Below, in pieces: positions 11,067 to 59,158 of a stretch of 64,000 bases of DNA (position 1 is its first letter; the number at the start of each line of letters is the position of its first letter). The stretch is from an uncultured Actinomycetota bacterium. Its GTDB lineage: Bacteria > Actinomycetota > Humimicrobiia > Humimicrobiales > Humimicrobiaceae. A model generated the notes under the pieces. The model was not told where the DNA came from, made no database searches, and saw only the letters and a list, made by a program, of their open reading frames with translations. A program made the position numbers and the translations under genes. Location of the stretch: assembly GCA_964610385.1 (NCBI GenBank), contig CAZSXW010000004.1:21452-85451 (forward strand), read 5' to 3'.

Positions 11067-12599
11067 ATGGACAGTGTATTTGTCATTGATTTAGGTGGTC
11101 AATACAGCCATTTGATAGCCAGGAGAGTCAGGGAGCTGAGGGTTTATTCAGAGCTTATTCCCTATGATATTGCAATTGATAAAATAAGGCAGATGAAACC
11201 AAGGGGTCTCATACTTTCCGGTTCTCCCTACAGCATACTGTCGATAAATAAAGATCTCCTTAGATTTAACAAAGAGATCCTGTCTGTAGGTATACCGGTT
11301 CTGGGGATATGCTTTGGTATGCAGCTTATTACCAAACTTTTGGGTGGGAAGGTCACCAGAAGTGGGAAGAATGAGTACGGAAAGACAAAGGTAAAGATAG
11401 ATTCTAAGTCGCCTCTTTTTAAAGGGCTGAAGCCAATGGAAACCTGCTGGATGAGCCATAAAGACAGTGTGTCAGAAATCCCTCCCTCTTTTAACATTAT
11501 AGCTTCCACAACCAATATACCCATTGCAGGTATAGAAGAACCTGTAAAAAAGATTTACGGGATACAGTTTCACCCGGAAGTGATACATACTCCATCCGGC
11601 ATGGAGATACTAAAGAATTTCCTTTTTGGTGTCTGCGGGTGCTCCCCAACATGGACCATGGTTTCCATCATTGAAGAACAGGTAAGGAAAATAAGAGATG
11701 AAGTGAAAGGCGGGAGGGTGATATGCGGCCTAAGCGGCGGAGTGGATTCATCTGTTGCAGCAGTTCTGGTAAATAAAGCAGTAGGAGAGGCGCTCACCTG
11801 TATTTTTGTTGATCATGGACTGCTCCGGAAAGGGGAGGCAAATAAAGTTATAGAGACGTTTAGAGAAAATTTTAAAATCAATCTTATCCATATAAATGCA
11901 AAGGAAAGATTTCTTAAAAAACTGCAAGGAGTCTCAGAACCGGAAAAGAAAAGAAAGATAATAGGCAATGAGTTTATAAGAATATTTGAAGAAGAAGCAT
12001 CGAAAATAAAGGATGCGGATTATCTGGTGCAGGGGACATTGTATTCTGATGTCATAGAAAGCGGCACCCGGGACGCTGCAAGAATAAAATCACACCATAA
12101 TGTAGGAGGGCTTCCTGATGATATGAAACTCAAACTGATCGAGCCATTAAGGTTATTATTTAAAGATGAAATAAGGAAGATAGGAAAAGAGCTTGGTCTT
12201 CCCGATGAGATAGTATGGAGGCAGCCTTTTCCAGGCCCCGGATTGGCCATAAGGATAATCGGTGATGTTACAGAAGAAAGGCTTGAGATACTCAAGAATG
12301 CAGATGCTATAGTGACCGAGGAAATAAAAGGAGCAGGTCTGTATAAGAAGATCTGGCAATCTTTTGCAGTACTCCCTGCAATAAAAAGTGTGGGAGTAAT
12401 GGGTGATGAAAGGACATATGCATATCCTATAATAATAAGGGCGGTAAACAGTGTCGATGCTATGACTGCGGATTGGGTAAGGCTTCCTCATAAAGTCCTG
12501 GAAAGAATAAGTACCAGAATTGTAAATGAGGTTGAAGGAGTTAACAGAGTAGTATATGATATAAGTTCAAAGCCGCCCAGCACTATAGAGTGGGAATAG
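11067..12599 (+). CDS. guaA: GMP synthase (glutamine-hydrolysing)
   Basis: 510 aa with an N-terminal GATase (GICFGMQ), an ATP-PPase SGGVDSSV motif and a C-terminal dimerisation domain. Confidence 0.9.
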
Positions 12600-19597: not shown

Positions 19598-19619
19598 TAC
19601 CTCCAGCGCCAGCAAAAAG

Positions 19620-19649
19620 AAAATGCCCCTTACCATAAAGGGGCATTTT
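19620..19649. terminator. Bidirectional intrinsic terminator between convergent genes (AAAATGCCCCTT, accat loop, AAGGGGCATTTT)
   Basis: A perfect 12-bp stem flanked by an A-run upstream and a T-run downstream. Confidence 0.8.
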
Positions 19650-19668
19650 CTACGTTTTAATTGTCAAT

Positions 19669-41661: not shown

Positions 41662-44304
41662 ATGGAAATGGTTTCTAAAAAGTATGTGTATTTTTTTGGT
41701 GAAGGCAAAAAAGAGATGAAGGGCCTCTTGGGTGGAAAAGGTGCTAATCTGTCAGAGATGACCAACATAGGGCTGCCTGTCCCTTACGGTTTTACCATAA
41801 CTACGGAAGTGTGTAATATGTTTTATGAATTGGGCAAGAAATATCCCGAAGGTTTGGATAAGCAGATTGACGAAAATCTAAAAAAACTTGAAGAAAAAAT
41901 GGGAATGATCTTTGGAGATGAAAAAAATCCACTTCTGGTTTCTGTCAGGTCTGGGGCAGCTATCTCGATGCCGGGTATGATGGACACGGTGCTGAATCTT
42001 GGTTTGAATGATAAGACTATCAAGGCCTTGATAGAAAAAACGAATAATGAAAGATTCGCCTGGGATTCCTATAGAAGATTTGTTCAGATGTTCGGTAATG
42101 TAGTAATGGGAGTGGAACATGATAGATTTGAGGAAGCGATACAGGCCAGAAAAGACAAGAAAAAGGTAAAATATGATACGGAGCTTGATGCCGAAGATCT
42201 AAAGGAGCTTGTAGAAGATTATAAGAAAATAATAAAGAAAGACAAGGGTAAGAGTTTCCCTCAGGATCCAAGAGAACAGCTGAAAATGTCAATTGATGCA
42301 GTATTCGGCTCCTGGAACAATAAAAGAGCCATATCTTATAGAAATCTTCACGATATACCACATAATATCGGCACTGCAGTAAATGTACAGGCAATGGTGT
42401 TCGGAAATATGGGAGAGAGTTCGGGAACCGGTGTTGCTTTTACCAGAGACCCGGCGACAGGAAAAGATGAGTTTTATGGTGAATATCTTATGAATGCACA
42501 GGGGGAAGACGTGGTCGCAGGGATAAGGACTCCCAAGCATATTTCTAAATTAAAAGAGGAAATGCCCGAGATCTATAAGCAGCTTATTGATATACGGAAA
42601 AAATTAGAAGACCATTACCGTGATATGCAGGATGTTGAATTTACCATCCAGGAAGGTAAGTTGTATATGCTTCAGACCAGGACCGGAAAGAGAACTGCAT
42701 CAGCAGCGTTAAAGATAGCAGTGGACATGGTCGATAAAAAATATATAGACAGGAAGACCGCAGTGACCAGAGTAGAGCCTCAAATGCTCGACCAGTTATT
42801 GCATAAACAGCTTGATCCAAAAGCCAAGCAAAAAGCAGAAATACTTGCCAAAGGTCTGCCAGCCTCGCCGGGTGCAGCGTTAGGCAGAGTTGTTTTCAAC
42901 GCAGATAGTGCTGTCGAAGAAGCAAAGAACGGGAATGTTATCCTGGTAAGGACGGAGACATCTCCCGAGGATATACAGGGAATGGCTGCTGCTCAGGGAA
43001 TCTTGACCGCAAGAGGTGGAATGACTTCTCATGCTGCAGTAGTCGCAAGGGGTATGGGTAAGTGCTGTGTTGCTGGTGCTGAGGATATCAAAGTATTTGA
43101 AAATAAAAAATATTTTAAGGTAAACGGCAGGCAGATAAAAAAGGATGACTGGATCACTCTTGACGGTTCAACGGGAGAAATTTTTACAGGAAAAATACCG
43201 GTGGTCGATCCCGTTCTGGGAGAAAATTTCAAAAAATTTATGAGCTGGGTTGATGAATACAAAAAAATAGGAGTAAGGACAAATGCTGATACTCCCAATG
43301 ATTCCAGGGTGGCAATAAGTTTTGGTGCAGAGGGTATAGGTCTCTGCAGGACTGAGCATATGTTCTTTGAAGCGGATAGAATAAAGGCAGTAAGAAAGAT
43401 GATAGTGGCAGGTAACAGGGAGGAAAGGGAGAAAGCACTAGCGAAGCTTTTACCGATGCAGCGAAAAGATTTTATAGAGATATTTAAAGTGATGAATGGT
43501 ATGCCTGTGACCATAAGACTACTTGATCCGCCGCTTCATGAATTTTTACCTAATGAAGATGTAGATATAAAGGAAATAGCTGGTGAACTAGGACTAAAAT
43601 TTGATGAACTCAAGGCAACTATAAATGCTCTTCATGAAATAAACCCCATGCTGGGACACAGGGGATGCAGGCTTTCCATTACCTATCCTGAGATCCTTGA
43701 GATGCAGGTAAGAGCAATATTTGAAGCTACTGTTGAACTGAAAAGGAAAAAATATAAGGTAAAACCGGAAGTGATGATCCCGCTGGTCGGGAGTGTAAAT
43801 GAAGTAAAAGTCCTGAAGGAACAGATAATAAAGATAGCGGACAGCATAATGAAGAAGGAGAACCTTAAGTTTGATTATAAGGTAGGCACCATGATCGAGA
43901 TACCGAGGGCCTGTGTCACTGCTGACGAGATAGCAGAAGAAGCCGAATTTTTCAGCTTTGGAACGAATGACCTCACCCAGATGACTTTTGGATTTTCAAG
44001 AGATGACTCGGGTAAGTTTCTTCCCGACTATCTGGAAAAAGGTATTTTGGATAAGGACCCGTTTGCTACCCTTGATAAAGATGGCGTAGGCCAGCTGGTA
44101 AAGATGGCTGTTGAAAAAGGCAGAAAAGTCAGAAAAGATTTAAAGATAGGTATATGCGGAGAACATGGGGGGGACCCGAGTTCTGTAGAATTCTGCCACA
44201 TGGTAGGAATGGATTATGTCAGCTGCTCGCCTTACAGGGTACCTATTGCCAGACTGGCTGCTGCACATGCTGCCTTAAAGGAAGAAGATAAAAAAAATAG
44301 CTAA
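41662..44304 (+). CDS. ppdK: Pyruvate, phosphate dikinase
   Basis: 880 aa with an N-terminal ATP-grasp (LLGGKGANLSEM), a phospho-His domain (GGMTSHAAVVARG) and a PEP-utilising TIM barrel. Confidence 0.95.
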   Translation: MEMVSKKYVYFFGEGKKEMKGLLGGKGANLSEMTNIGLPVPYGFTITTEVCNMFYELGKKYPEGLDKQIDENLKKLEEKMGMIFGDEKNPLLVSVRSGAAISMPGMMDTVLNLGLNDKTIKALIEKTNNERFAWDSYRRFVQMFGNVVMGVEHDRFEEAIQARKDKKKVKYDTELDAEDLKELVEDYKKIIKKDKGKSFPQDPREQLKMSIDAVFGSWNNKRAISYRNLHDIPHNIGTAVNVQAMVFGNMGESSGTGVAFTRDPATGKDEFYGEYLMNAQGEDVVAGIRTPKHISKLKEEMPEIYKQLIDIRKKLEDHYRDMQDVEFTIQEGKLYMLQTRTGKRTASAALKIAVDMVDKKYIDRKTAVTRVEPQMLDQLLHKQLDPKAKQKAEILAKGLPASPGAALGRVVFNADSAVEEAKNGNVILVRTETSPEDIQGMAAAQGILTARGGMTSHAAVVARGMGKCCVAGAEDIKVFENKKYFKVNGRQIKKDDWITLDGSTGEIFTGKIPVVDPVLGENFKKFMSWVDEYKKIGVRTNADTPNDSRVAISFGAEGIGLCRTEHMFFEADRIKAVRKMIVAGNREEREKALAKLLPMQRKDFIEIFKVMNGMPVTIRLLDPPLHEFLPNEDVDIKEIAGELGLKFDELKATINALHEINPMLGHRGCRLSITYPEILEMQVRAIFEATVELKRKKYKVKPEVMIPLVGSVNEVKVLKEQIIKIADSIMKKENLKFDYKVGTMIEIPRACVTADEIAEEAEFFSFGTNDLTQMTFGFSRDDSGKFLPDYLEKGILDKDPFATLDKDGVGQLVKMAVEKGRKVRKDLKIGICGEHGGDPSSVEFCHMVGMDYVSCSPYRVPIARLAAAHAALKEEDKKNS

Positions 44305-44450
44305 AATTTACCAAATATCTTTGGATAACATCTCCGATAAATAGTATATTAGTGGTAAAATAAATAAAGCATTTAATAATTAAAACCGGTCTGGTCTGTG
44401 GTCTCCAGGAAGTCCTTTCGGATATATGTCTATTATTATTTAAAAGGGAA

Positions 44451-46364
44451 ATGAACAGAAGTCTAAAGGCAGGCGAAGTAGAAGAATTAAAATCCAAGGC
44501 TGATATTCACAGCGTTATTTCCGGTTATGTAAAGCTAAAGAGGACCGGCAGGAATTATACCGGACTTTGCCCTTTTCACAAAGAGAAAACTCCATCATTT
44601 ACAGTTGATACTTCGAAGCAGCTGTATCACTGCTTCGGGTGCGGAGAAGGAGGGGATGTAATAAGATTTATAGAAAAAATTGAAAATATGGAATTTATAG
44701 AGGCTGTTGAATTTCTAGCAAAGAAGATAGGATACAACCTCAAGTATGTTTATGGCGGCTCTGCGCAGCCTTCGAAACTGAAAAACAGACTGGTGGAATT
44801 AAACGAACTTGCCAAGAAGTATTTTAGTTTTATACTCTTTAACAGCAAAAAGGGGCTACCCTCGCTGAATTATTTGAAAAACAGGGGTTTTATAGAGAAG
44901 ACATTGATTGAATTCGATGTGGGATACAGCCTGGATGAGTGGAGTGCCTTTTCAAATTTTGCCCAGAAGAGAGGTTATAACGCAAAGGAAATAATCGGAT
45001 GCGGGCTCGGCATAGAGAGTAAGAGGGGTAAAGAGGAGGTATATGATCGGTTTAGAAACAGAATAATCTTTCCCATTGAAGATATAGTGGGAAAGACAAT
45101 AGGCTTTGGGGGAAGAATCCTCTCGGAATCCGGGCAGACAGCTACACGACAGGCAAAGTATATAAACACGCCTGAGACCATCCTTTATTCCAAGAGCAAA
45201 AATATATACAGGATCTTTCAGGCAAAAAAGCATATTGTAGAGGCAGATGAGGTACTTATAGTGGAAGGTTATACCGATGTCATGGCTCTCCACCAGCAGG
45301 GTATAAAGAATGCAGTTGCAAGTCTTGGAACTGCTCTTACGTCGGAACAGATAAAGCTGCTGGGCAGATTTACAAAGAATATTGTACTGGTATTTGACAG
45401 CGATGCGGCAGGGATGAGTGCTTCGCTGAAAGGAATTGAAAGGCTGAGAGAGTACAATGAGAGGCTGGACCTATATTATGAAAATAATTTGAATATAAAG
45501 GTATCGGTACTGGAAGAGGGCTATGATCCTGCAGATTTTATATTCAAGAAGGGAAGAGATGCTTTTTTGGATAAAATAGAAAGTTCCGAAGGTATTATTG
45601 ATTTTACCCTTGATGCGATTATTGGTAAATATGATATAAGTGATTTGGCTGGAAAACTTAAAGCCAGCGACCATATTACAAGGTTTATATCCACTCTTTC
45701 CTCGAGGATCATACAGGAGGAGTGTATAAAAAGGGTAGCCGGTAAATTAAATCTTAAGGAAAGCCTGCTTCTGGAAGAGATGTTGAGGAAAGAACATGAA
45801 CATAAAGACAGAGCTGTATACTGGAATAAAGATGATGATAGTTCAAAGAAGGAATCTGTAGGTGAGGATACAGTTCCTTTAAAGAGAATTGAAATTGAAG
45901 CATTAAAGCTTATAATAAACGGGCTGGGAGGTCAAATGGACGTGTTCCTGAGTCTGGGCCCTGATCATTTTAGATTTGATGATACCAGGGAGCTTTACCT
46001 GATTGCAAGGGATGAGATCCGGAAAGCAAAAGAAGATAATAAAAAGATAAACTTTCCAATTAAAATTACGTCAGGTGCAGTAGAGAATGAAGAGGTTAGA
46101 AAACTATATAATTTCATTTTATTCAGCAAACCGCATTTCAAGGATCAGTATTTAAATAAATTGAGTAAAGAGGTTATAAGTAATCTAAAGGGTATCCGCA
46201 TTTCAGAAGAAATTGAGAAAATCAGAAAAAAGATGATAGAATATGAAAAAAATAAGGATACGGGCAGCGGCATAGAAAAAGATGAATGTGACTCTAAATA
46301 TGACCAGTTGTACCGCAGACTTATAGAACTGGAAAAAGAAAAAATGAATTTGAAATTACTTTAA
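44451..46364 (+). CDS. dnaG: DNA primase
   Basis: A zinc ribbon (CPFHKEKTPSF...CFGCG) and a TOPRIM domain (EGYTDV). Confidence 0.9.
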   Translation: MNRSLKAGEVEELKSKADIHSVISGYVKLKRTGRNYTGLCPFHKEKTPSFTVDTSKQLYHCFGCGEGGDVIRFIEKIENMEFIEAVEFLAKKIGYNLKYVYGGSAQPSKLKNRLVELNELAKKYFSFILFNSKKGLPSLNYLKNRGFIEKTLIEFDVGYSLDEWSAFSNFAQKRGYNAKEIIGCGLGIESKRGKEEVYDRFRNRIIFPIEDIVGKTIGFGGRILSESGQTATRQAKYINTPETILYSKSKNIYRIFQAKKHIVEADEVLIVEGYTDVMALHQQGIKNAVASLGTALTSEQIKLLGRFTKNIVLVFDSDAAGMSASLKGIERLREYNERLDLYYENNLNIKVSVLEEGYDPADFIFKKGRDAFLDKIESSEGIIDFTLDAIIGKYDISDLAGKLKASDHITRFISTLSSRIIQEECIKRVAGKLNLKESLLLEEMLRKEHEHKDRAVYWNKDDDSSKKESVGEDTVPLKRIEIEALKLIINGLGGQMDVFLSLGPDHFRFDDTRELYLIARDEIRKAKEDNKKINFPIKITSGAVENEEVRKLYNFILFSKPHFKDQYLNKLSKEVISNLKGIRISEEIEKIRKKMIEYEKNKDTGSGIEKDECDSKYDQLYRRLIELEKEKMNLKLL

Positions 46365-46383
46365 ATTGGAGGAGAGTTAAAAT

Positions 46384-47484
46384 ATGAAAAGAGGATCGGA
46401 ATTTAAGTTAGAAGAGGTAAAGATGCTTATCAATAAAGGCAAATCTGATGGTCTTCTGACTACTGAAGAAATAGCTGAGACTCTTTCGGATATAGAGCTT
46501 ACTAAGGAACAAATAGAAAATATCTATGATGTAATCCAGAACCTTGGAATAGAGATCGTAAGTGAAGATGACGAGGATATAGACAGCAAAAGCACTAAAA
46601 AGAAAGAAGGTGAAGGGATATTTAGCAGGAAACTGGATCTTACCATAAAGTCACCTACAAATGATCCCGTAAGGATGTATCTTAAAGAGATAGGTAAGGT
46701 AAGGCTGCTTACCGCTTTTGAAGAAGTACATCTTGCAAAGAAAATAGAAGCAGGTGATATAAAAGCTAAAAGGATGCTGGTTGAGGCCAACTTGAGGCTT
46801 GTGGTAAGCATCGCTAAAAAATATGTGGGAAGAGGGATGCTCTTTTTAGACCTTATCCAGGAAGGAAACCTGGGTCTTATAAGAGCGGTTGAAAAATTTG
46901 ATTATAAAAAGGGATATAAATTTTCTACTTATGCCACCTGGTGGATAAGGCAGGCAATAACCAGAGCCATAGCAGACCAGGCCAGGACCATAAGGATTCC
47001 GGTACATATGGTAGAAACAATAAATAAATTGATAAGGATACAAAGGCACCTTCTTCAGAAATTTGGAAGGGAACCCACCCCGGAAGAGATAGCGAAGAAG
47101 ATGAAATTTTCCCCTGAGAAGGTAAGAGAGATAATGAAAATCTCGCAGGAGCCGGTATCTCTTGAGACTCCTATAGGTGAAGAGGAAGACAGCCATCTGG
47201 GGGATTTCATAGAGGATTCGGATGTTGAAGCGCCTTCCGATGCTGCTTCGTTTACCATGCTCCAGGAGCAGCTCCAGGAAGTCCTGAATACATTGAATGA
47301 CAGGGAAAGAAAAGTCATCCAGTTAAGATTCGGCCTGCAGGACGGCCATCCCAGGACACTTGAGGAAGTTGGGAGAGAATTCGGTGTAACCAGGGAAAGA
47401 ATAAGACAGATAGAATCAAAGACTCTGGGAAAACTCAGGCATCCCAACAGGAGCAGCGCCTTAAGAGACTTCTTAGAACATTGA
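46384..47484 (+). CDS. rpoD: RNA polymerase primary sigma factor (SigA)
   Basis: Regions 1.2 through 4.2, with the conserved region 2.4 ([13 protein letters not shown]) and region 4.2 (TLEEVG...TRERIRQIE). Confidence 0.95.
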
Positions 47485-47499
47485 TGCCATCTTTAGACC

Positions 47500-47527
47500 T
47501 TGAAATAAACTTCTTATATACTATAAT
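47500..47527 (+). promoter_or_regulatory. Candidate tRNA promoter (TTGAAA, 16-bp spacer, TATAAT)
   Basis: Read directly from the sequence upstream of the tRNA. Confidence 0.4.
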
Positions 47528-47548
47528 GGCATATCATGTAAACCCAAT

Positions 47549-47623
<75 letters not shown>

Positions 47624-47638
47624 ATAAAATTTTGAATT

Positions 47639-47791
47639 CTATAATTTTTTACTACTCATAATAGGTTCTTGGTTCAGCAGTTCTCTATATTCTGCTTTGG
47701 AATAAATAATATCTCTTATAAGATCAGTAAGTTCTCTTAGTTTGTTTGCCTTTTCATCTGGAAACTTCTTAAGAAATTCTTTATAATTTAT
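47639..47791 (-). pseudogene. Start-less 50-codon C-terminal gene fragment ending 16 bp from the tRNA 3' end (gene remnant)
   Basis: The minus-strand frame reads INYKEFLKKFPDEKANKLRELTDLIRDIIYSKAEYRELLNQEPIMSSKKL*, bounded upstream by an in-frame stop with no ATG, GTG or TTG. It is a possible remnant of a gene broken at the tRNA-associated integration site. Confidence 0.3.
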
Positions 47792-47900
47792 CTATGCTCC
47801 TAACGCTTATTTAAATTAGGAGTATATTATAATCACAGTTATAATTATTTGATAATACTAAATATTGGTTATATGATAAGGGACAATTCCGAAATACATT

Positions 47901-48917
47901 ATGCAGGATATAATAGAAAAAAAGCGATTATCTATTCTACAAATACTTCAGAACACAGATGATGTGGCAATAAGTAGCCACAAAATTACACGCAAACTAA
48001 AAGAAATGGGATATAAAATGAGCGAGCGTACTGTGCGTTTTCATCTGCTTTCTTTGGATAAAGACGGCTATACGGAGTATTTTCCAAAAAAAGGAAGAAG
48101 AATAACGGAGAAAGGGATTAACGAGCTATTACTTGCAAGGGCTTATGAAAAGGTGGGTTTTTTATCCACAAAAATAGATAGCATGACCTATAGTATGCAC
48201 TTCGATATTTATAAGAAAGAAGGCACTGTTGTTATAAATTTGAGCTATGTAAAACTGAAAGATATAAAAAAGGCATGGCCGTTGATGTGTAAAGTACTTG
48301 AAAAAAGACTTGGCATGGGCAAATTCCTTGTTTTCTTTAAACCGGGGGAAAGAATAGGACAGGCCACTGTTCCTGAAGACTGTATAGGCATAGGAACTGT
48401 CTGTTCCATAACTATTAACGGTATCCTTCTCCAGCATGGAATCCCCATAAGATCGAGATTCGGGGGCCTTCTAGAGATACGGAAAAATAAACCAAACCGG
48501 TTTGTAGCGATAATTAATTATGACGGAACGAGTTTAGATCCTCTTGAAATATTCATAAAAAGCGGTATGACGAATTATATACAGGCAGTAAAAAACGGCA
48601 ATGGTTTGATAGGTGCGAGTTTCAGAGAGATGCCATCGGACAGCAGAAGCCAAGTTGAAGATATCGCAGAAAAGATAGATGCAATAGGATTGGGCTGCTT
48701 TATGAAGATTGGTTATCCCGGTAAAAGTCTGTGTGAAATTCCTGTTAATGACGGTAGTTTTGGTTCAATAATAATCGGCGGTCTGAATCCCATAGCTATT
48801 TTGGAAGAATACAGAATAAATGTGCAGTCCAAAGCTCTTTCCTGTCTGATAGATTATAAAAAACTCTTTCCTTATACGGAAACGGAAAAAAGACTGAAAT
48901 CAATTCTTAATAAATAA
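47901..48917 (+). CDS. NrpR-like nitrogen regulatory repressor (N-terminal winged HTH plus one NrpR/DUF128 domain)
   Basis: 338 aa. The architecture and sequence resemble euryarchaeal NrpR. The genomic context (GltB-like protein, amt, glnK directly downstream) matches an NrpR regulon. Confidence 0.5.
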   Translation: MQDIIEKKRLSILQILQNTDDVAISSHKITRKLKEMGYKMSERTVRFHLLSLDKDGYTEYFPKKGRRITEKGINELLLARAYEKVGFLSTKIDSMTYSMHFDIYKKEGTVVINLSYVKLKDIKKAWPLMCKVLEKRLGMGKFLVFFKPGERIGQATVPEDCIGIGTVCSITINGILLQHGIPIRSRFGGLLEIRKNKPNRFVAIINYDGTSLDPLEIFIKSGMTNYIQAVKNGNGLIGASFREMPSDSRSQVEDIAEKIDAIGLGCFMKIGYPGKSLCEIPVNDGSFGSIIIGGLNPIAILEEYRINVQSKALSCLIDYKKLFPYTETEKRLKSILNK

Positions 48918-48959
48918 TACTCTTTTTTAAAAATCCCAGGATTACATTATAAAATTTAC

Positions 48960-49016
48960 TTGACAGCACTTCTTTATGCTCATATTATTGTGGCAATGAA
49001 TTACCACAATAATATT
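48960..49016 (+). promoter_or_regulatory. Strong sigma-70 promoter (TTGACA, 17-bp spacer, TATTAT) overlapped by a perfect 12-bp inverted repeat (ATATTATTGTGG, 10-nt spacer, CCACAATAATAT)
   Basis: TTGACA lies at 48960-48965 and TATTAT at 48983-48988. The palindrome at 48982-49015 has a classic repressor-operator geometry and lies 24 bp upstream of the GltB-like gene. Confidence 0.55.
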
Positions 49017-49039
49017 AAAAATCATAGGAGGTTAAATAA

Positions 49040-50680
49040 ATGATCCAGTGGCCTAAAACAAATGATGCTCTTGGGACTGTAAACAGAGGAAATCCTGCAG
49101 AATCAGGATTATGTACACTCTGCCGTGCAGACTGCAAGGGAAAATGTGAAACATGGCTTTCAAGTCTTCGGGGAAGAGAACTTCTCTATCCTAGGGATTT
49201 CGGCCATGTAACAGCAGGAAGCGCAAATACATGCGCTATAGGAGTATGCTACAATTCGTTACGAATACAGGGATACCTTTATGGTGCAGATTATCTTCCA
49301 GACGGAGTCACAAACAGCACAGATGACTGTGTTTTTCCTAATGTTTCCATAGAAACACAATTTGGCAGAGAAGTTAAAACAAAATGCCGTATTCCTATTA
49401 TGACTGGAGCATTAGGCTCTACATTTATTGCTGCGAAGTACTGGGATTCTTTTGCCATAGGAGCTGCCTTATCTGGCTTTCCTATTGTAGTAGGTGAGAA
49501 TGTTGTTGGTGTAGACAAAGAAGCTGTTATAGAAAACGGAAAGATAAAGAACGCGCCTGAATTGGATAGAAGAGTAGAAACGTTTTTAAGATACTATGAC
49601 GGATACGGCGCCATTATAGTACAGATGAATGTTGAGGACGCAAGAAATGGTGTTGCACAGTACCTTATTGAAAAATACGGAGACAAAGTAATCATAGAAC
49701 TGAAATGGGGACAGGGAGCAAAAGTGATCGGCGGTGAAATCCAGGTTACCAATTTAGATTATGCAATTTTTCTAAAGAAACGGGGATACATAGTAGATCC
49801 CGATCCTGAAAAACCAGAAGTTCAGGAAGCATTCAAACACGGTGCAATAAAATCTATAGCAAGGCACAGCAGGCTCGGTTATACAAACCTTTCCAGCGTA
49901 AGTGCTGTTGAAGAAAATTTTATGAATGCCGTAAAAGACCTCAGGTCATCAGGATATAAACGAATATCATTAAAAACCGGTTCATATGGAATGGAAGCTC
50001 TGGCCATGTCAATTAAATATGCATCTGAAGCGAATCTTGATCTTCTAACTATTGACGGTTCCGGCGGAGGAACTGGTATGAGCCCGTGGAACATGATGGA
50101 AAGCTGGGGTGTTCCATCTATACTTCTGCATGCAAAAGCATATGAATATGCAAAACTGCTTGAATCCAAAGGCAAGACAGTCGTAAATATGGCCTTTGCA
50201 GGCGGTCTTGCAAAAGAAGACCAAATTTTTAAAGCTCTTGCTCTCGGTGCTCCATATGCAAAACTTATATGCATGGGGCGTTCTTTAATGATTCCGGGAT
50301 ACCTTGGTTCGAATATTGAAGGTGTAATTAATCCGTCCAAAAAGGAACAGCTCAATGGCAATTGGAATGATTTACCAAAGTCTGTAACCAATTACGGCTC
50401 TACTCCTGAAGAAATTTTTGCAGGATACTATGATATTCAGAAAAAGGTCGGTAAAGACGAGATGAAGAATATTCCGCTCGGTGCTATTGCTGTTTATACC
50501 TTATGCGACAAACTTGGTGCAGGATTACAACAGCTTATGGCGGGAAACAGAATCTTTAAAACTGAAGGTATTACGAGAAACGAGATTTTCTCAGCAAACA
50601 GGGAAACAGAGGCTGAAACAGGCATTCCATTTATTACTGATGTTCAGGACGAAATAGCAAAGGAAATCTTAAGTAAATAG
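49040..50680 (+). CDS. Archaeal-type glutamate synthase large-subunit domain protein (FMN-binding GltS domain with an N-terminal Cys cluster)
   Basis: 546 aa with an N-terminal CTLCRADCKGKC Cys cluster and a GltS FMN-domain signature (IDGSGGGTGMSP, comparable to DGGTGASP). Confidence 0.6.
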   Translation: MIQWPKTNDALGTVNRGNPAESGLCTLCRADCKGKCETWLSSLRGRELLYPRDFGHVTAGSANTCAIGVCYNSLRIQGYLYGADYLPDGVTNSTDDCVFPNVSIETQFGREVKTKCRIPIMTGALGSTFIAAKYWDSFAIGAALSGFPIVVGENVVGVDKEAVIENGKIKNAPELDRRVETFLRYYDGYGAIIVQMNVEDARNGVAQYLIEKYGDKVIIELKWGQGAKVIGGEIQVTNLDYAIFLKKRGYIVDPDPEKPEVQEAFKHGAIKSIARHSRLGYTNLSSVSAVEENFMNAVKDLRSSGYKRISLKTGSYGMEALAMSIKYASEANLDLLTIDGSGGGTGMSPWNMMESWGVPSILLHAKAYEYAKLLESKGKTVVNMAFAGGLAKEDQIFKALALGAPYAKLICMGRSLMIPGYLGSNIEGVINPSKKEQLNGNWNDLPKSVTNYGSTPEEIFAGYYDIQKKVGKDEMKNIPLGAIAVYTLCDKLGAGLQQLMAGNRIFKTEGITRNEIFSANRETEAETGIPFITDVQDEIAKEILSK

Positions 50681-50713
50681 TGTTTTTATCCGGGAGAGCT
50701 GCTGTTTCACCGG

Positions 50714-50953
50714 GTGATTTTGAATATTAATTCCCTAAAACATAATTACAGTATTATAGATGGGAAGCCCATGTATCCTATATACCTGATAAAGGAGCAC
50801 AGACGGTACACTATTATGGTCACTACAGTAATGCAACAAGGGGAAGATTTAAGAAAGAAGATAGCCAACCAGGTTATCACATTATGGCTGATAGGGATAC
50901 TAATATATAATTTTTTACTAAAAAAGATGAGCAGTATTCGAAGAGAAGGATAA
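50714..50953 (+). CDS. Possible small membrane protein (79 aa)
   Basis: An ORF with a C-terminal hydrophobic helix (ITLWLIGILIYNFLL). There is no homology or RBS support. Confidence 0.2.
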   Translation: MILNINSLKHNYSIIDGKPMYPIYLIKEHRRYTIMVTTVMQQGEDLRKKIANQVITLWLIGILIYNFLLKKMSSIRREG

Positions 50954-51004
50954 AAGGCCATATGCTAATCCATCTTTTAAATCAGTGGATTTATTAAAAT
51001 AAAA

Positions 51005-51034
51005 AGTTCTAAAAGCGTCCAATACGGGGAGCCA
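51005..51034 (+). repeat. Degenerate copy 1 of the tRNA-Asn 3' half (att-like): AGTTCTAAAAGCGTCCAATACGGGGAGCCA
   Basis: It is nearly identical to copy 2 and is similar to the tRNA T-arm and acceptor sequence GGTTCAAGTCCTACCCGGGGAGCCA (GTTC, GTCC and CGGGGAGCCA are conserved). Confidence 0.5.
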
Positions 51035-51507
51035 GTAAGTTTTACTTCAATAATTCTGGAATCTTAAATACTTCTTTTTATCGACAAATCTATCATTAAT
51101 ATATTTATGCAGCATGCTTGATATTAATGTCTGATAGGGATACCTTTAGTATTAACAAGAGATTTTATTTGCTCAAGATCATTATAATACATTTATAAAT
51201 CGGTTCGAAATTTCACAACCTGGTGCAGCCACCTATTTAGGACACCTAATCATTAAACAAATCCAGATATTTCCCTAACATAAAAATACAATTTTCCTAC
51301 TAAATCAATTCCCTATATACATATATGCATTGTTTAACACGCAACTCTTAAATTGTTTTAGAAAGGATAGTCCTGGTACCAGTTAGATATAAAAGAATCG
51401 GAGAAAGTTAACATGAAATTCATATTTATTTAACATGATTGTAACATTCATATACTATAATTAATTTTTCAGCTTAAAAATTTAAATATTACTTTGAAAG
51501 GACTCTA

Positions 51508-52746
51508 GTGGCTATTAGTAATGGGGATAATGCTTGGATGCTGGTTTCTGCAGCAATGGTAATGCTTATGACTCCTGGGTTGGCCTTTTTTTACGGAGGA
51601 ATGGTAAGAAGAAAAAATGCTATTTCCACAATAACGATGAGCTTTATGACACTGGGACTTATAAGTGTATTATGGGTTATTTTTGGATATAGTCTGGCAT
51701 TCGGAACGGACTTTGGAGGGGTTATTGGAGGTTTTGATTTTCTGATGCTCAGAAATGTCGGGCAGGAAGCCTCTGCTGTTTATGCAACTACGGTGCCCCA
51801 TCTTACTTTCATGGTCTTTCAGGGAATGTTTGCCATAATAACGGTAGCGCTTATTTCTGGTGCTGTAGTTGAGCGAATGAAATTTGCATCTATTTTAATA
51901 TTCTCTGTTCTATGGTTTTCGCTTGTTTATGTGCCTATAGCTCACTGGGTCTGGGGCGGAGGCTGGCTTGCAAACCTTGGAGTCCTTGATTTTGCAGGTG
52001 GTACTGCGGTCCATATAAATGCCGGTGTTTCAGCACTATCGCTTGCCATCTTATTAGGACCAAGGAAAGGATATGGTGGGTTGTCGGAAATGAGGCCCCA
52101 TAACGTTCCTTTTATTGTTATAGGAGCAGGCATTCTATGGTTTGGATGGTTTGGCTTCAATGCCGGCAGTGCATTGGCCTCTGGCGGACTTGCTTCAAGT
52201 GCTTTTGTGGCTACTAATGTTGCCGCAGCCGCAGCCGCGCTTACTTGGATGTTCCTGAGCTGGTTCTATCACAGACCGACGGCTTCCGGTATAGCCATAG
52301 GGGCTGTATCGGGACTCGTGGCAGTGACGCCTGCCGCCGGGTTTATCAGCCCTATATTCGGCTTACCTATCGGAATAGGCGCTTCAATAATCTGTTTTTA
52401 TATGATGAGACTTAGAAACAAGACAAGGATTGATGAATCGCTTGATGTATGGGCATGTCATGGAATGGCAGGCACATGGGGCTCAATTACGACTGGTGTA
52501 TTTGCGTCCATGGCAGTTAACCCAGCAGGAGCAGATGGGTTGATATATTCGGGAAGTTTCATTCTTTTAGCAAAACAATTCCTGGCAGTTATTGTAGTAT
52601 GGATCTTCTCTTTTGGAATGACATGGCTTATTGGTAAATTAATAGACGTGACGATAGGCCTCAGGGTCAGCTCTACCGAAGAAGCTATCGGACTTGATAT
52701 TTCACAGCATGGAGAAAAAGCATATACAAGAGAAGTGGATATTTAA
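51508..52746 (+). CDS. amt: Ammonium transporter (GTG start)
   Basis: 412 aa with 11 transmembrane helices and the Amt signature (DFAGGTAVHINAG). Confidence 0.9.
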   Translation: MAISNGDNAWMLVSAAMVMLMTPGLAFFYGGMVRRKNAISTITMSFMTLGLISVLWVIFGYSLAFGTDFGGVIGGFDFLMLRNVGQEASAVYATTVPHLTFMVFQGMFAIITVALISGAVVERMKFASILIFSVLWFSLVYVPIAHWVWGGGWLANLGVLDFAGGTAVHINAGVSALSLAILLGPRKGYGGLSEMRPHNVPFIVIGAGILWFGWFGFNAGSALASGGLASSAFVATNVAAAAAALTWMFLSWFYHRPTASGIAIGAVSGLVAVTPAAGFISPIFGLPIGIGASIICFYMMRLRNKTRIDESLDVWACHGMAGTWGSITTGVFASMAVNPAGADGLIYSGSFILLAKQFLAVIVVWIFSFGMTWLIGKLIDVTIGLRVSSTEEAIGLDISQHGEKAYTREVDI

Positions 52747-52747
52747 A

Positions 52748-53086
52748 ATGCAGAAGATAGAAGCCATAATAAAAGAAGATGCGTTTAACAGTATCAAGAA
52801 TGCCCTAGAAGAAGGTGGTTTTATTAGCATGACAGTCTGTAATGTTATAGGACGGGGTAAGCAAAAAGGCCTGGCATTAAAATGGAGGTCGTCCGAACAC
52901 AGAGTCGAATTTCTTCCAAAAGTTAAGATAGAACTTGTAGTCGACGACAAGGATCTTGATAGAGTCCTGGACATAATCTGCACAATAGCCAACACAGGAT
53001 CGGTTGGTGACGGGAAAATTTTTGTTATTCCAGTCGGTGAAGTTATAAGGATAAGGACTGGAGAACGAGGAGCGACTGCTATATAA
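52748..53086 (+). CDS. glnK: Nitrogen regulatory protein P-II
   Basis: 112 aa starting MQKIEAIIKE..., with a T-loop region (GRGKQKG). Its ATG lies 2 nt after the amt stop. Confidence 0.9.
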   Translation: MQKIEAIIKEDAFNSIKNALEEGGFISMTVCNVIGRGKQKGLALKWRSSEHRVEFLPKVKIELVVDDKDLDRVLDIICTIANTGSVGDGKIFVIPVGEVIRIRTGERGATAI

Positions 53087-53159
53087 GACTATCAGCGAGA
53101 GGACATCTATAGAAAGTGTAAGGAATTTCATGCAAAAAGGGTGTTAGAAATTAGGCCTG

Positions 53160-53197
53160 TTGTCTAAACCACCCGAAAAAGCGGTTTTCTTAGACAA
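53160..53197. repeat. Nested inverted repeat downstream of glnK (TTGTCTAA acc accc GAAAA agcgg TTTTC TTAGACAA); candidate terminator or protein-binding site
   Basis: Read directly from the sequence. Confidence 0.35.
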
Positions 53198-53395
53198 TAT
53201 TTATAAAAAACTTCTAACTAATATTATGTCTGGATCAGTTTTTGAGGAGAAGGGCAATTGTTAAATCTTTTAAAACTCAATTCAAGAATAAAAATATCTC
53301 CATTTAAGCTTAATGGTTTGGTTTTAACTTTGTCTCCAATGCCCTAAGATTTACATCATCTCATTATTTAATTTATGGTATATATTAGTGTCTAA

Positions 53396-53425
53396 AGTTC
53401 TAAAGGCGTCCAATACGGGGAGCCA
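53396..53425 (+). repeat. Degenerate copy 2 of the tRNA-Asn 3' half (att-like)
   Basis: AGTTCTAAAGGCGTCCAATACGGGGAGCCA matches copy 1 at 29 of 30 positions. Confidence 0.5.
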
Positions 53426-53593
53426 GAGATTTTTATTTGGCTTTCCCAAATTCCGGAGCAGCCAGCCCCCTAACAGTGGTAGGCCTTCATATCTTCCCAG
53501 TTGTAGAGTAGTCTTTGTAACAATTTATGTAAAAGATAGTCAAATATAATGGGAATTTAAAATATTTTTTATGTAAAGGATATAGTTGTTGAT

Positions 53594-54895
53594 ATGTCAC
53601 TAATAGATTTTTCAAGAAATAAGATTAAGAAACTATTTACTAAGGAAAGCAATATAGTACTTAAAAATAATGTTCCTGCTTACGAGAGTCTTGAATATAA
53701 GTTTGATGATATAGACGAATTCGGGCTTTATCTTCATGTTCCTTTTTGTAGGCAAATTTGCTCATATTGTCCTTATAATAAGGAGATTTATAAACCCGAA
53801 TTAGCAAAACTTTATACAAAGGCTGTAAAGAAGGAAATTGATTTCTATAGTACGCTTTTTAGTGGAAAGCCTGTAACATCATTCTATATTGGTGGCGGTA
53901 CTCCCACAACTATGCTTTACAGTGGGATTTCTGAGATTATAGAATATATATATAGAAATTTTAATATGCAGTGTGGTATACATATAGAAAGTCATCCTAA
54001 TGACTTAAATAATAATAATCTCAATACTATAAAATCTCTCGGCATAAAATACCTGAGTACAGGAGTAGAAGCTCTTGATGATAAATACCTAAATTTTCTT
54101 AATAGACCATATAATACTAAAGAAGTAAAGGAAGTAATTGAAAGAGTAGTCAGTAAAGGATTTAAATGTTTTAATGTAGACTTCATTTTTGCTTTACCTG
54201 ACCAGTCATATAGCGAGATAGAAAAGGCAGGCCATGAGTTAGTTAAAATGGGTGTGAATCAGGTAGCAGCTTATCCATTCTTTAAATTTCCATATACTAA
54301 AATGGGCGGAAATTCTGATGAAAGCAATTACAGTATATCAACAATATTTAGAAGACGTAAAATGTTAAGCATCCTCGAAAATATTTTCTATAATTCTGAT
54401 TTTGAGAGAACTTCTGTCTGGGCATTCACAAAAAAGGGAATATCAAAATATTGTTCTGTAACTGTGCCTCTTTATGTTGGCATTGGTGCTAGTGCTGGAA
54501 CATACCTAAAGGATATTTTTTATTTAAATACTTTCAATGTTTCTGAGTATACTACTGTTATGAATAGCGGAAAGCCACCAATTGCCTTATCGCTTGATCT
54601 TTCAAGAAACATGCAGATGGCATGGTGGTTTTACTGGAGAGTATATGAAACTAGATTTAAGAGAAGCGATTTTAAAAAAAGATTCGATGTGCAGTTTAAT
54701 AAAATATATGGAAAATATATTAAATTATTTTCTTTATTTGGTTTTATAAAAAACGATAATAAAGACCAAATAATTCTTTCAGATAGAGGTTCATACTGGT
54801 TGCATGCAGTTGAAGACCTGTTTTCATTAAACTATATAGGTAAGTTATGGGGAACTTCCAAACAAGAACCCTGGCCTAAAATGGTAGAATTGTAA
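53594..54895 (+). CDS. Radical SAM protein, HemN-like (oxygen-independent coproporphyrinogen-III oxidase family)
   Basis: A CxxxCxxC motif (CRQICSYC) and an HemN-type GGGTPT motif. GC is about 29%, lower than its neighbours. Confidence 0.7.
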   Translation: MSLIDFSRNKIKKLFTKESNIVLKNNVPAYESLEYKFDDIDEFGLYLHVPFCRQICSYCPYNKEIYKPELAKLYTKAVKKEIDFYSTLFSGKPVTSFYIGGGTPTTMLYSGISEIIEYIYRNFNMQCGIHIESHPNDLNNNNLNTIKSLGIKYLSTGVEALDDKYLNFLNRPYNTKEVKEVIERVVSKGFKCFNVDFIFALPDQSYSEIEKAGHELVKMGVNQVAAYPFFKFPYTKMGGNSDESNYSISTIFRRRKMLSILENIFYNSDFERTSVWAFTKKGISKYCSVTVPLYVGIGASAGTYLKDIFYLNTFNVSEYTTVMNSGKPPIALSLDLSRNMQMAWWFYWRVYETRFKRSDFKKRFDVQFNKIYGKYIKLFSLFGFIKNDNKDQIILSDRGSYWLHAVEDLFSLNYIGKLWGTSKQEPWPKMVEL

Positions 54896-54960
54896 TAGAA
54901 TTAAAAAGATGAAATTTGCTCCCATTTATCTTCAAAATTAGGAAGTTCATTAAAGTAAAA

Positions 54961-54990
54961 AGTTCGAAATGTATCTACTAAGGGGAGCCA
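54961..54990 (+). repeat. Degenerate copy 3 of the tRNA-Asn 3' half (att-like)
   Basis: AGTTCGAAATGTATCTACTAAGGGGAGCCA matches copy 1 at 23 of 30 positions. The left flank TTAAAGTAAAA also matches copy 1 (TTAAAATAAAA). Confidence 0.4.
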
Positions 54991-55045
54991 AACGATGTCT
55001 CTTCACCAACAAACGAGGTAACCCACTCTCTAATAATATTGTATT

Positions 55046-55128
55046 TTTACTTGACGAAGTAAAAAATAAGTATTATTATATCAATATACGATATAACGAG
55101 CTACGATATAACGTAAAACGATATAATA
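55046..55128 (+). promoter_or_regulatory. Promoter (TTGACG, 17-bp spacer, TATTAT) followed by three direct repeats of ACGATATAA(C/T)(G/A) at 15-bp period (55088, 55103, 55118); candidate operator of the PadR gene
   Basis: Read directly from the sequence. The repeats lie at the predicted transcription start of the PadR gene. Confidence 0.45.
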
Positions 55129-55137
55129 ATAGAAGTA

Positions 55138-55491
55138 TTGAAGCAGGAAATGATGGATATAAAAAAGATAAAAAAGTACTCTCCTCTTACGGAGACTACA
55201 TTCTATATCTTGATATCTCTTATTGAGCCTTTGCACGGGTATGGGATAATGCAGAAGGTAGAAAGACTGAGTAACGGCAGGGTTAAACTCGGGCCTGGGA
55301 CTCTTTATGGAGTACTTGGAAATCTTTTAGAGGCAAGAATGATAGAGTTAAAAGATGATAGCAGGATCAAAAGCAGGAGAAAGGTATATTGTATAAAGCA
55401 GCTTGGCATCGATATGATAAGGTTTGAACTGGACCGTCTTGAAGAGATGATTAAAAATGGCAAGTTCCTTCTTAATGAGAAAGGACAATGA
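55138..55491 (+). CDS. PadR-family transcriptional regulator
   Basis: 117 aa with a PadR wHTH (LHGYGIMQKV...GPGTLYGVLGNL). Confidence 0.85.
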   Translation: MKQEMMDIKKIKKYSPLTETTFYILISLIEPLHGYGIMQKVERLSNGRVKLGPGTLYGVLGNLLEARMIELKDDSRIKSRRKVYCIKQLGIDMIRFELDRLEEMIKNGKFLLNEKGQ

Positions 55492-56071
55492 TATGGATAA
55501 AAAAGAAACAAAAAAATTTATGAAGATATTCTTTGCCTGGAAGGAAGAAAGAGAAGCAAAGTGGCTATATGAGATGTCGAAAAAGGGTTGGCACCTTAAG
55601 GAAGTAGGATTATTTTGTTATACATTCCAAAAGGGTATACCACATGATTATACCTATAGATTCGATTTCAAAGTATTGAAAAAAGATGATATGGATGAAT
55701 ATACTGCCATATTTAAAGATGCAGGATGGGTATATATAGGAAGCATAGGATCCTGGCATTATTTCAGAACTGAAGGTGGAGTAGAGTTAGAGCCCGAATT
55801 ATATAATGACAACAGATCAAGAATAGAAAAGTATAAAAGGCTTCTTATTGTACTTGGTATAATATTCCTCCCAGTGATGATGTGGGGTCTGCCTAATCTG
55901 TATATGAGGATGATTGATATGGCCTCAGACAGCATACTCAATAATCCTGTTGTATTTAATATCTATTTGCCTTTTGTGGTCATCCTTACAATTGTGGAGG
56001 TCTTTGTACTCTACGGAATTATCAGGATTATTATAATAATAAACAAATTGAAAAAAGAGATCAGGGAATAG
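55457..56071 (+). CDS. PadR-associated membrane protein (DUF2812-like)
   Basis: 204 aa with two C-terminal transmembrane helices. The overlapping, co-directional arrangement with PadR is typical. Confidence 0.5.
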   Translation: MASSFLMRKDNDMDKKETKKFMKIFFAWKEEREAKWLYEMSKKGWHLKEVGLFCYTFQKGIPHDYTYRFDFKVLKKDDMDEYTAIFKDAGWVYIGSIGSWHYFRTEGGVELEPELYNDNRSRIEKYKRLLIVLGIIFLPVMMWGLPNLYMRMIDMASDSILNNPVVFNIYLPFVVILTIVEVFVLYGIIRIIIIINKLKKEIRE

Positions 56072-57949: not shown

Positions 57950-59158
57950 ATGGCAAAGACGATAACTGAAATCAATGAAAAAATCAAAAAGGGAAATGTT
58001 GTAGTTGTTACTGCAGAGGAGATTATTGACATTGTAGACAAGGAAGGTGTAAAAAAGGCTGCTGAAAAAGTAGACGTAGTTACTACTGCCACTTTCGGGC
58101 CAATGTGTTCTTCTGGTGCATATTTCAACATCGGTCATGCTAAACCCAAAATAAAACTCGGTGGAGGCAGATCATATTTAAACGAAGTACCCGTGTATAC
58201 GGGCTTTGCTGCTGTGGACGTTTACATTGGGGCCACTGCTATACCTGATGACGACCCGCGCAATAAGATTTTCCCCGGGGAGTTTAAATATGGAGGTGGC
58301 CATGTGATCGAGGATTTGGTAGCGGGTAAGGATTTAAAGTTTGAAGCCAGTGCCTATGGTACAGATTGTTATCCGCGGAAGAAGTTAGAGACTTGGTTAA
58401 ACATCAAGGACCTTAATGAGGCAGTGCTTTTTAATCCAAGAAACGCTTACCAAAACTACAATGTAGCTGTTAACCTTTCTGGCAAGATCATCTACACCTA
58501 CATGGGAGTACTTAAGGACAATTTAAAGAATGCTAACTACTGTAGTGCGGGACAACTTTCCCCACTTTTAAATGACCCATATTACAAAACTATTGGAATT
58601 GGAACGAAGATCTTCCTAGGGGGAGGTAAAGGTCATGTTGTCTGGCAGGGAACTCAACACAATCCTACAGTAAAGAGAAAAGATAACGGTGTTCCTCAAG
58701 TACCAGCGGGTGCTTTAGCCGTTTTAGGAGACCTTAAACAGATGAAACCTGAATGGCTGATAGGTACTACCATGGTAGGATATGGTGTAACTTTAACTGT
58801 TGGTATAGGTATACCTATACCAATTCTTAATGAAGAAATATGTCGATATACTGCAGTGAAGGATGAGGAAATATGGGCTCAGGTAGTCGATTACAGTGAG
58901 GCTTATCCGCAGGGGAAAAAGGAAAATCTTGGTGAGGTAAACTATTCGCAACTTAAAAGCGGTAAGATTACAATCCGGGGCAAAGAGGTTCCAACAGGAA
59001 ATCTTTCCAGTTATCCAAAAGCAGTGGAGATTGCTAATATTCTGAAAGAATGGATTAAAGATGGTAGTTTTCTACTGGGTGAACCTGTGGCATACCTGCC
59101 AGGCGCGGATAGTGGATATACTTTTAAACCTCTAAAGGAAAGGCCGATTAAAGAGTGA
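57950..59158 (+). CDS. DUF39/COG1900 homocysteine-biosynthesis protein (sulfide-dependent, methanogen MA1821-type)
   Basis: 402 aa with the characteristic COG1900 sequence (VVTTATFGPMCSSGAYFN...). It is followed by an NIL-ferredoxin partner gene. Confidence 0.7.
   Translation: MAKTITEINEKIKKGNVVVVTAEEIIDIVDKEGVKKAAEKVDVVTTATFGPMCSSGAYFNIGHAKPKIKLGGGRSYLNEVPVYTGFAAVDVYIGATAIPDDDPRNKIFPGEFKYGGGHVIEDLVAGKDLKFEASAYGTDCYPRKKLETWLNIKDLNEAVLFNPRNAYQNYNVAVNLSGKIIYTYMGVLKDNLKNANYCSAGQLSPLLNDPYYKTIGIGTKIFLGGGKGHVVWQGTQHNPTVKRKDNGVPQVPAGALAVLGDLKQMKPEWLIGTTMVGYGVTLTVGIGIPIPILNEEICRYTAVKDEEIWAQVVDYSEAYPQGKKENLGEVNYSQLKSGKITIRGKEVPTGNLSSYPKAVEIANILKEWIKDGSFLLGEPVAYLPGADSGYTFKPLKERPIKE

Follow-up and report, generated by a model that had tools for sequence, protein, structure and literature searches.

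A predicted NrpR operator over the sigma-70 promoter of a GltB-like gene in an uncultured Actinomycetota bacterium

A gene for an NrpR-like regulator is followed directly by a GltB-like gene in the 64,000-nucleotide stretch of DNA analysed here (the window), and a long palindrome overlaps the promoter between the two genes. The locus raises the question of whether this palindrome is the operator of the regulator encoded next to it, and how such an operator would be related to that of the archaea. In the literature, NrpR figures as a repressor of Euryarchaeota, with studies so far confined to methane-producing archaea. Its repression of nif and glnA depends on 2-oxoglutarate (PMC9765008), and the consensus of the methanogen operator is GGAAN6TTCC (PMC2723118). 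Among the NrpR papers that could be searched in full text, all of which were archaeal, no bacterial NrpR operator was found; subscription journals and regulon databases were outside the scope of this search.

The genes, the promoter and the palindrome

Pfam analysis of the window, which has a G+C content of 39%, revealed a gene order starting with pyruvate phosphate dikinase, DnaG primase and RpoD (46384-47484). These genes and a tRNA-Asn were followed by genes for the NrpR-like protein, the GltB-like protein, an ammonium transporter, a P-II protein and a radical-SAM protein. DnaG and the complete sigma-70 identify the host as a bacterium. The genes referred to below are as follows.

47549-47623: tRNA-Asn(GTT) gene, between rpoD and nrpR
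47901..48917, + strand: NrpR-like regulator gene (nrpR), 338 aa, winged helix and one NrpR regulatory domain (Pfam)
49040..50680, + strand: GltB-like gene, 546 aa, glutamate synthase FMN domain (Pfam PF01645, E = 1.5e-17)
51508-52746: ammonium transporter gene (amt)
52694-53086: P-II (glnK) open reading frame

The NrpR-like protein contained the NrpR domain set, with matches to PF08461 (7.5e-16) and PF01995 (1.5e-79), and its residues 88-327 matched PDB entry 3NEK, the protein MJ0159 of M. jannaschii (E = 1.5e-28). The nearest homologues were found in Spirochaetales and in many other bacterial metagenome-assembled genomes. Several of them were annotated as “NrpRI” or “repressor of nif and glnA”, and the JGI annotation was “global nitrogen regulator NrpRI”.

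The elements found between nrpR and the GltB-like gene are listed below.

48960..48965, + strand: -35 hexamer TTGACA of the gltB-like promoter (letters and promoter scan; same letters in the closest relative, L081)
48966-48982: 17-nt spacer between the hexamers
48983..48988, + strand: -10 hexamer TATTAT, inside the left outer arm of the palindrome (letters and promoter scan)
48982-48993: left perfect 12-nt arm, ATATTATTGTGG
48994-49003: 10-nt interval between the 12-nt arms
49004-49015: right perfect 12-nt arm, CCACAATAATAT
48982..49015, no strand: full palindrome, 34 bp, near-perfect, the probable full footprint (repeat search and alignment of relatives); outer arms ATATTATT and AATAATAT
48992..49005, no strand: predicted operator core, GGCAAT-GA-ATTACC (from 55 sites upstream of foreign gltB-like genes)
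48988..49009, no strand: 22-nt matrix match, TTGTGGCAATGAATTACCACAA, 18.1 bits, including the TGTGG/CCACA extension; identical in L081
48994..48997, + strand: predicted transcription start, 6-9 nt past the -10 hexamer (from promoter geometry alone)
49026..49031, + strand: Shine-Dalgarno sequence AGGAGG, 8 nt ahead of the ATG at 49040; kept in L081

The first-pass annotation described TTGACA, a 17-bp spacer and TATTAT as a near-consensus sigma-70 promoter, and its coordinates were confirmed. The promoter scan gave a match of 11/12 with a 17-bp spacer, and the rpoD gene of the host is located at 46384-47484. Promoters matching at 11/12 or better occurred 8 times in the window, compared with 2.6 +/- 1.6 in dinucleotide shuffles. 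The perfect 12-bp arms around a 10-nt spacer, with the -10 hexamer embedded in them, were also found as described, and the repeat search extended the symmetry to arms of 16 nt (48982-48997 and 49000-49015), which were 94% complementary with one mismatch and a 2-nt centre. The dyad axis is located between 48998 and 48999. The predicted start at 48994-48997, which we infer from promoter geometry, places the centre of the operator at about +3/+4. Of 200 dinucleotide shuffles, 11.5% contained a perfect inverted repeat of this kind (12-bp arms, loop of at most 20 nt; mean 0.165 per shuffle), so the palindrome by itself is uncommon, not decisive.

A dyad shared by nrpR loci of other bacteria

An alignment of 29 NrpR-like homologues led to a set of 80 bacterial genome loci from about ten phyla. 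With proteins of the window as tblastn queries, a GltB-like gene was detected in 53 of these 80 nrpR loci, mostly directly beside nrpR and either divergent from it or in tandem. A shared dyad, (T)GGCAAT-NN-ATTGCC(A), emerged when 200 nt ahead of each gltB-like gene were compared; its family consensus is GGCAAT-NN-ATTGCC, which can also be written as GGCA-N6-TGCC. With at most one mismatch, GGCAA-N4-TTGCC was present in 36 of the 50 gltB-like upstream regions from other genomes, giving 55 sites. Most of the 14 regions that lacked a site were coding sequence, so the gltB-like gene apparently lies inside an operon there. Two copies of the dyad were found in many loci, one after a TTGACA-type promoter and the other about 45 nt ahead of the start codon. 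Three overlapping sites were observed in L027 (9060-9109), and the metagenome contig L105 (10420-10460) contained two overlapping tandem dyads, TGTGGCAATTTATTGCCACA-TGGCAATCTACTGCCA, that resembled them.

The dyad of the window has a perfect left half and a single change, G>A, in the right half (TTACC vs TTGCC). TTGTGG/CCACAA had been taken as the half-site, but the core that is conserved is GGCAAT-NN-ATTGCC, composed of the inner GG/CC of those arms together with the 10 nt that had been regarded as the spacer. The TGTGG/CCACA arms were present in the closest relatives only; the other phyla lacked them, with C/T-GGCAAT in place of the TGTGG extension in the more distant ones, but shared the core of the dyad.

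Sites were scored with a symmetrised weight matrix of 22 nt, which was derived from the 55 foreign sites and did not include the window. The two best matches in the 64-kb window were 47962-47983 (18.7 bits) and 48988-49009 (18.1 bits), and the next one scored 14.2 bits. A site of at least 18 bits occurred in 3.8% of 1000 dinucleotide-shuffled windows, and two such sites occurred in none of the 1000. The score of 18.1 bits was lower than the median of the training sites, 21 bits.

In the 80 loci, the stretches up to 500 bp from nrpR, 80 kb in total, contained 60 sites of at least 17 bits and the other 764 kb contained 11, a 52-fold higher density beside nrpR, although this association arises partly by construction since the loci used to train the matrix were chosen through nrpR. 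The 27 untrained loci, which have no gltB-like gene, mitigate this, as 12 of them had a site of at least 17 bits within 500 bp of nrpR. At least one such site was located within this distance in 49 of the 80 loci, and 31 had none. These results support the proposal in the first-pass annotation that the operator belongs to the adjacent NrpR-like regulator, as far as sequence association can indicate it. The motif TTGTGG-N10-CCACAA with up to two mismatches was not significantly enriched in the window (4 matches vs 1.8 expected).

The genes beside the sites were nrpR (52), gltB-like genes (42), glutamate dehydrogenase genes (10) and NuoE-like genes (6). The NuoE-like [2Fe-2S] genes head operons, and the gltB-like gene is located at the operon end in several loci. 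From these neighbours, the predicted regulon centres on enzymes that convert 2-oxoglutarate to glutamate. A blind scan of metagenome contigs for TGTGGCAATNNATTGCCACA gave 21 loci. Five of the sites were located behind TTGACA-17-TATAGT promoters, directly ahead of genes of the glutamate dehydrogenase family, and one was ahead of NuoE/NuoF-like genes; the rest were uninterpretable because they were on short contigs or in coding sequence. None of these mostly short contigs carried nrpR, so the scan lends modest support to the regulon and not to the identity of the regulator.

The stand-alone GltB-like protein consists of the FMN domain only, with a Cys-rich N-terminus, and nrpR is its partner in the 53 loci mentioned above. 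A small Cys-rich open reading frame was observed ahead of the gltB-like gene in the operon in loci from Actinomycetota and Planctomycetota, and NuoE-like, NuoF-like and Fer2_4 genes were observed ahead of it in some Spirochaete loci. One possibility is that the stand-alone GltB-like protein is a glutamate synthase of an uncharacterised, NADH-linked type. Seven loci (L024, L040, L060, L063, L070, L080 and L082) contained a second NrpR paralogue next to the first; it was more divergent, with 36-41% identity to the protein of the window where tblastn gave a figure. In L040 and L070, the dyad was located between the two divergent nrpR paralogues. No second paralogue was found at 44000-56000 around the locus in the window.

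The position of the dyad relative to the promoter was analysed by anchoring the promoter-proximal sites and taking the best upstream -35/-10 match, with at least 9/12 counted as a good match. Of the 35 related sites that had a good promoter, 25 had the centre of the dyad 7-10 bp beyond the end of the -10 hexamer (mode 8); in the window, this distance was 10 bp. The typical related sequence was TATTAT-TGGCAAT; TATTAT followed by TGGCAAT was found in L018, L053, L029 and L008, and TTGAC(A/T) was located at an equal distance from the operator in most related loci. At the glutamate dehydrogenase and NuoE promoters, the dyad was 20-23 bp downstream. In classical bacterial repressor promoters, a dyad over -10/+1 of a sigma-70 promoter is expected to act by steric exclusion of RNA polymerase. 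The dyad of the window covers -10/+1, which is the textbook position for steric repression. The repressor-operator layout that had been proposed is thus borne out by a dyad over -10/+1 and by its near-fixed distance from the -10 hexamer in related loci.

Close relatives revealed which part of the intergenic region was kept. In L081, the NrpR of which was 95% identical, TTGACA, TATTAT and the palindrome were all conserved except for one A>T at the outermost end, and the 17-nt spacer between the hexamers contained 3 substitutions. The tRNA position differed in this relative, where another tRNA-like sequence and an assembly gap were observed in place of the tRNA-Asn; the DNA upstream of nrpR thus varies even between loci whose NrpR proteins are 95% identical. 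In L082 and L083 (NrpR 68% identical), the related site was TTGTGGTAACATATTGCCACAA and ATTATTGTGGTAACATATTGCCACAAAAAT was present, and the rest of the intergenic DNA could not be aligned. The segment ATTATTGTGG...CCACAA.AAT was the only long conserved block in the comparison with this 68% relative. The block overlapped another -10 hexamer (TAACAT), that of a TTGACT promoter, so that the register of the promoter was shifted around the palindrome. L084 (64% identical) carried the related site ATGTGGCAATAGATTGCCACAT, with a perfect 26-bp palindrome, CTATGTGGCAAT-AG-ATTGCCACATAG, ahead of a NuoE-like gene. Since the palindrome block was kept in these relatives, the TGTGG/CCACA extension and its A/T-rich flanks are a feature of this lineage and not a mere by-product of the -10 box.

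The site with the best score in the window was located within nrpR itself.

47962..47983, no strand: second operator-like site, ATGTGGCAATAAGTAGCCACAA, 18.7 bits, in nrpR codons 21-28 (matrix)

This site was also a one-mismatch match to TTGTGG-N10-CCACAA. In L081, a synonymous T>C lowered its score to 11.7 bits, it was absent from the other relatives, and no site was found within the nrpR coding region among related loci. It may serve as an auxiliary or autoregulatory operator, some 1 kb from the promoter, but this idea is weakly supported in view of its degradation in L081 and its absence elsewhere. The first-pass annotation suggested a search upstream of amt for TTGTGG-N10-CCACAA, and the result was negative. 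In the approximately 550 bp of non-coding DNA at 50954-51507, the best matrix score was -5.6 bits, and there was no match to this motif within two mismatches, no notable inverted repeat and no Rfam match. No matrix site was found upstream of nrpR (47621-47900) or at 53087-53593. The matrix hits at 12351 (14.2 bits) and 20268 (13.6 bits) were dismissed, as they were inside long open reading frames and had scores at the level of the shuffles. Two other inverted repeats of the window were unrelated in sequence to the operator. A perfect 24-bp palindrome without a spacer, TTGGTATAGGTATACCTATACCAA, was observed at 58800-58823. At 19618-19651, between convergent open reading frames, we observed a hairpin whose 14-bp arms (AAAATGCCCC...GGGGCATTTT) are bordered by runs of A and of T; it looks like a bidirectional intrinsic terminator.

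Based on the core of the dyad, its association with nrpR and its position on the promoter, we consider it quite probable that the palindrome at 48982-49015, with the core GGCAAT-GA-ATTACC, is the operator of the NrpR-like repressor encoded directly upstream, with binding predicted from sequence.

Alternative explanations for the palindrome

The palindrome could have arisen by chance where A+T-rich intergenic DNA surrounds a -10 box. Its outer arms are indeed A/T-rich, the left arm is constrained by the -10 hexamer, and 11.5% of the shuffled windows had a perfect 12-bp inverted repeat. What decides against chance is the score of the foreign-trained matrix together with the conservation in relatives. 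The independently trained matrix gave 18.1 bits, a level that 3.8% of shuffles attained, and the one other hit of similar strength was nearby, in nrpR; the block was kept, between diverging flanks, in the relatives whose proteins were 95% and 68% identical; and the same layout was present in dozens of genomes. A chance origin is effectively refuted by geometry, matrix score and conservation in relatives, and we regard it as highly improbable. It is also very unlikely that the palindrome acts as RNA, that is, as a hairpin in read-through from nrpR or in a longer leader, serving as a terminator, an attenuator or a processing site. A 12-bp stem can form, with a centroid energy of -13.6 kcal/mol, and read-through is possible since no terminator was detected between nrpR and the GltB-like gene. 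However, the stem is A/U-rich and G-C-poor, with no U-tract after it (AAUAUUAAAAAUC), and the palindrome was not among the intrinsic terminators listed by the terminator scan. The z-score of the fold was only -1.9, and a search of 47400-51600 against Rfam (E <= 1) returned the tRNA-Asn and no cis-regulatory match. With a start predicted near 48995, the right arm alone would be transcribed. Furthermore, the sequence of the half-site, GGCAA/TTGCC, was conserved across phyla, whereas an RNA stem would show compensatory changes.

A site for a protein other than NrpR has also to be considered. The dyad may be the operator of another transcription factor encoded elsewhere, such as a nitrogen or carbon regulator, with the NrpR-like gene merely a neighbour. 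This would fit the sites at glutamate dehydrogenase promoters in the blind scan, which were on contigs without nrpR, and the 31 of 80 nrpR loci that had no strong site nearby. Nevertheless, the 52-fold density beside nrpR extended over about ten phyla and included loci without a gltB-like gene, sites were found between divergent nrpR paralogues (L040, L070), and the spacing was identical to that of the experimentally defined archaeal NrpR operator. The CRP/FNR site is TGTGA-N6-TCACA and the TnrA/GlnR site is TGTNA-N7-TNACA, and TGTGG-N10-CCACA does not fit the spacing of either. An unrelated regulator is therefore unlikely, although less so than the other alternatives. The least probable of them, at a level we consider negligible, is that the sequence resembling TGGCA...TTGC serves a nitrogen-regulated gene as its sigma-54 (-24/-12) promoter. 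The consensus of such promoters is TGGCAC-N5-TTGC, with a distance of 11 from GG to GC, counted from G to G. TGGCAAT-NN-ATTGCC has a superficial likeness to it, and the genes are nitrogen genes. However, the distance from GG to GC in the dyad is 10 and falls short by one base, and at -12 the window reads AC where GC would be required. The element is a symmetric dyad, flanks included, and follows a complete sigma-70 promoter at a constant distance. A sigma-54 promoter was rejected on spacing, and an operator of the NrpR-like repressor remains the preferred reading.

Comparison with archaeal NrpR and the proposed circuit

The experimentally studied systems to which the locus can be compared are NrpR of Methanococcus maripaludis with its nif and glnA operators (Lie & Leigh 2003; Lie, Wood & Leigh 2005, as cited in PMC9765008 and PMC2723118) and NrpRI of Methanosarcina mazei (Weidenbach et al. 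2008, 2010, as cited in PMC11456600). In M. mazei, NrpRI acts together with the general transcription factors of archaea and with a separate protein, NrpRII. The regulator of the window shares the homology of the winged helix and the NrpR regulatory domain with that of M. maripaludis. M. maripaludis NrpR has two regulatory domains, and the protein of the window has one. In this respect it has the same architecture as M. mazei NrpRI, a winged helix and a single NrpR domain in about 340 aa. A second NrpR paralogue is present in some bacterial loci, but none was found in the window at 44000-56000.

The operators were also similar. The 4-N6-4 spacing and the symmetry were the same (GGAA-N6-TTCC in methanogens and GGCA-N6-TGCC here), and the third base of the half-site was C here and A there, followed here by a conserved AT (GGCAAT). 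The window itself reads GGCA-N6-TACC and does not have the canonical GGAA-N6-TTCC operator. The half-site had been said to differ from that of the methanogens; the difference holds for one base per half-site, but with equal spacing and symmetry the site of the window is a variant and not an unrelated site. Judged by its sequence, the dyad of the window is a bacterial form, GGCA-N6-TGCC, of the operator GGAA-N6-TTCC that archaeal NrpR uses. In the window, where operator and transcription start are predictions, as in M. maripaludis, the operator lies at the core promoter or directly behind it and spans the transcription start, and two operators occur in many bacterial loci, as in the nif promoter of M. 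maripaludis. The targets, predicted ones in the window, belong to nitrogen assimilation in both, and 2-oxoglutarate would be the expected effector. Several differences were also found. The promoter here is a bacterial sigma-70 promoter with -35 and -10 elements and not TATA/BRE, and the extended palindrome (TGTGG...CCACA with A/T flanks) distinguishes this lineage from M. maripaludis. The predicted targets here are the GltB-like gene, glutamate dehydrogenase and NuoE-like operons, whereas those in methanogens are nif, glnA and amt-glnK; amt-glnK of the window lacked a site, although it is a classic NrpR target in methanogens. The layout is also like that of classical bacterial repressor promoters and of nitrogen repressors such as TnrA/GlnR or AmtR, but neither the family of the protein nor the sequence that it would recognise is related to theirs.

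These comparisons suggest a circuit that can be outlined as follows. A dimer of the NrpR-like protein would bind the dyad with one winged-helix domain on each GGCAAT half-site and would cover roughly -13 to +21, and the bound dimer would exclude RNA polymerase from the gltB-like promoter or block open-complex formation there. Under nitrogen scarcity, 2-oxoglutarate would accumulate, by analogy with archaeal NrpR. Its binding to the NrpR regulatory domain would lower the affinity of the protein for DNA, as in the archaeal systems, and the GltB-like gene would be de-repressed. The product of this gene would consume 2-oxoglutarate to make glutamate and would thus be induced as its predicted substrate accumulates.

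A broader reading, which we judge a shade likelier to be right than wrong, is that NrpR is also a widespread 2-oxoglutarate-sensing repressor of bacteria, with its own operator, GGCAAT-NN-ATTGCC, over -10/+1 of sigma-70 promoters, and with a core regulon of the stand-alone GltB-like gene (often with NuoE/NuoF-like partners) and glutamate dehydrogenase. The phyla concerned would be Spirochaetota, Thermodesulfobacteriota, Actinomycetota, Planctomycetota, Chloroflexota, Rokubacteria, Firestonebacteria, Poribacteria and others. If this is true, it would be an undescribed bacterial circuit of nitrogen control, of which the window is one clean example, and an archaeal-type repressor would have been adapted to bacterial sigma-70 promoters through a one-base change in the half-site. 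The bacterial NrpR homologues, which now carry no annotation beyond “DUF128” or “repressor of nif and glnA”, would gain an operator consensus, a promoter geometry and a regulon, and the GltB-like FMN protein would be flagged as a probable 2-oxoglutarate-consuming enzyme of ammonium assimilation. The layout itself is ordinary; what it exposes is a predicted NrpR operator and regulon of bacteria, conserved and, it seems, so far undescribed, by which the regulation of GltB-like genes in uncultured anaerobes would become open to study from genome sequence alone.
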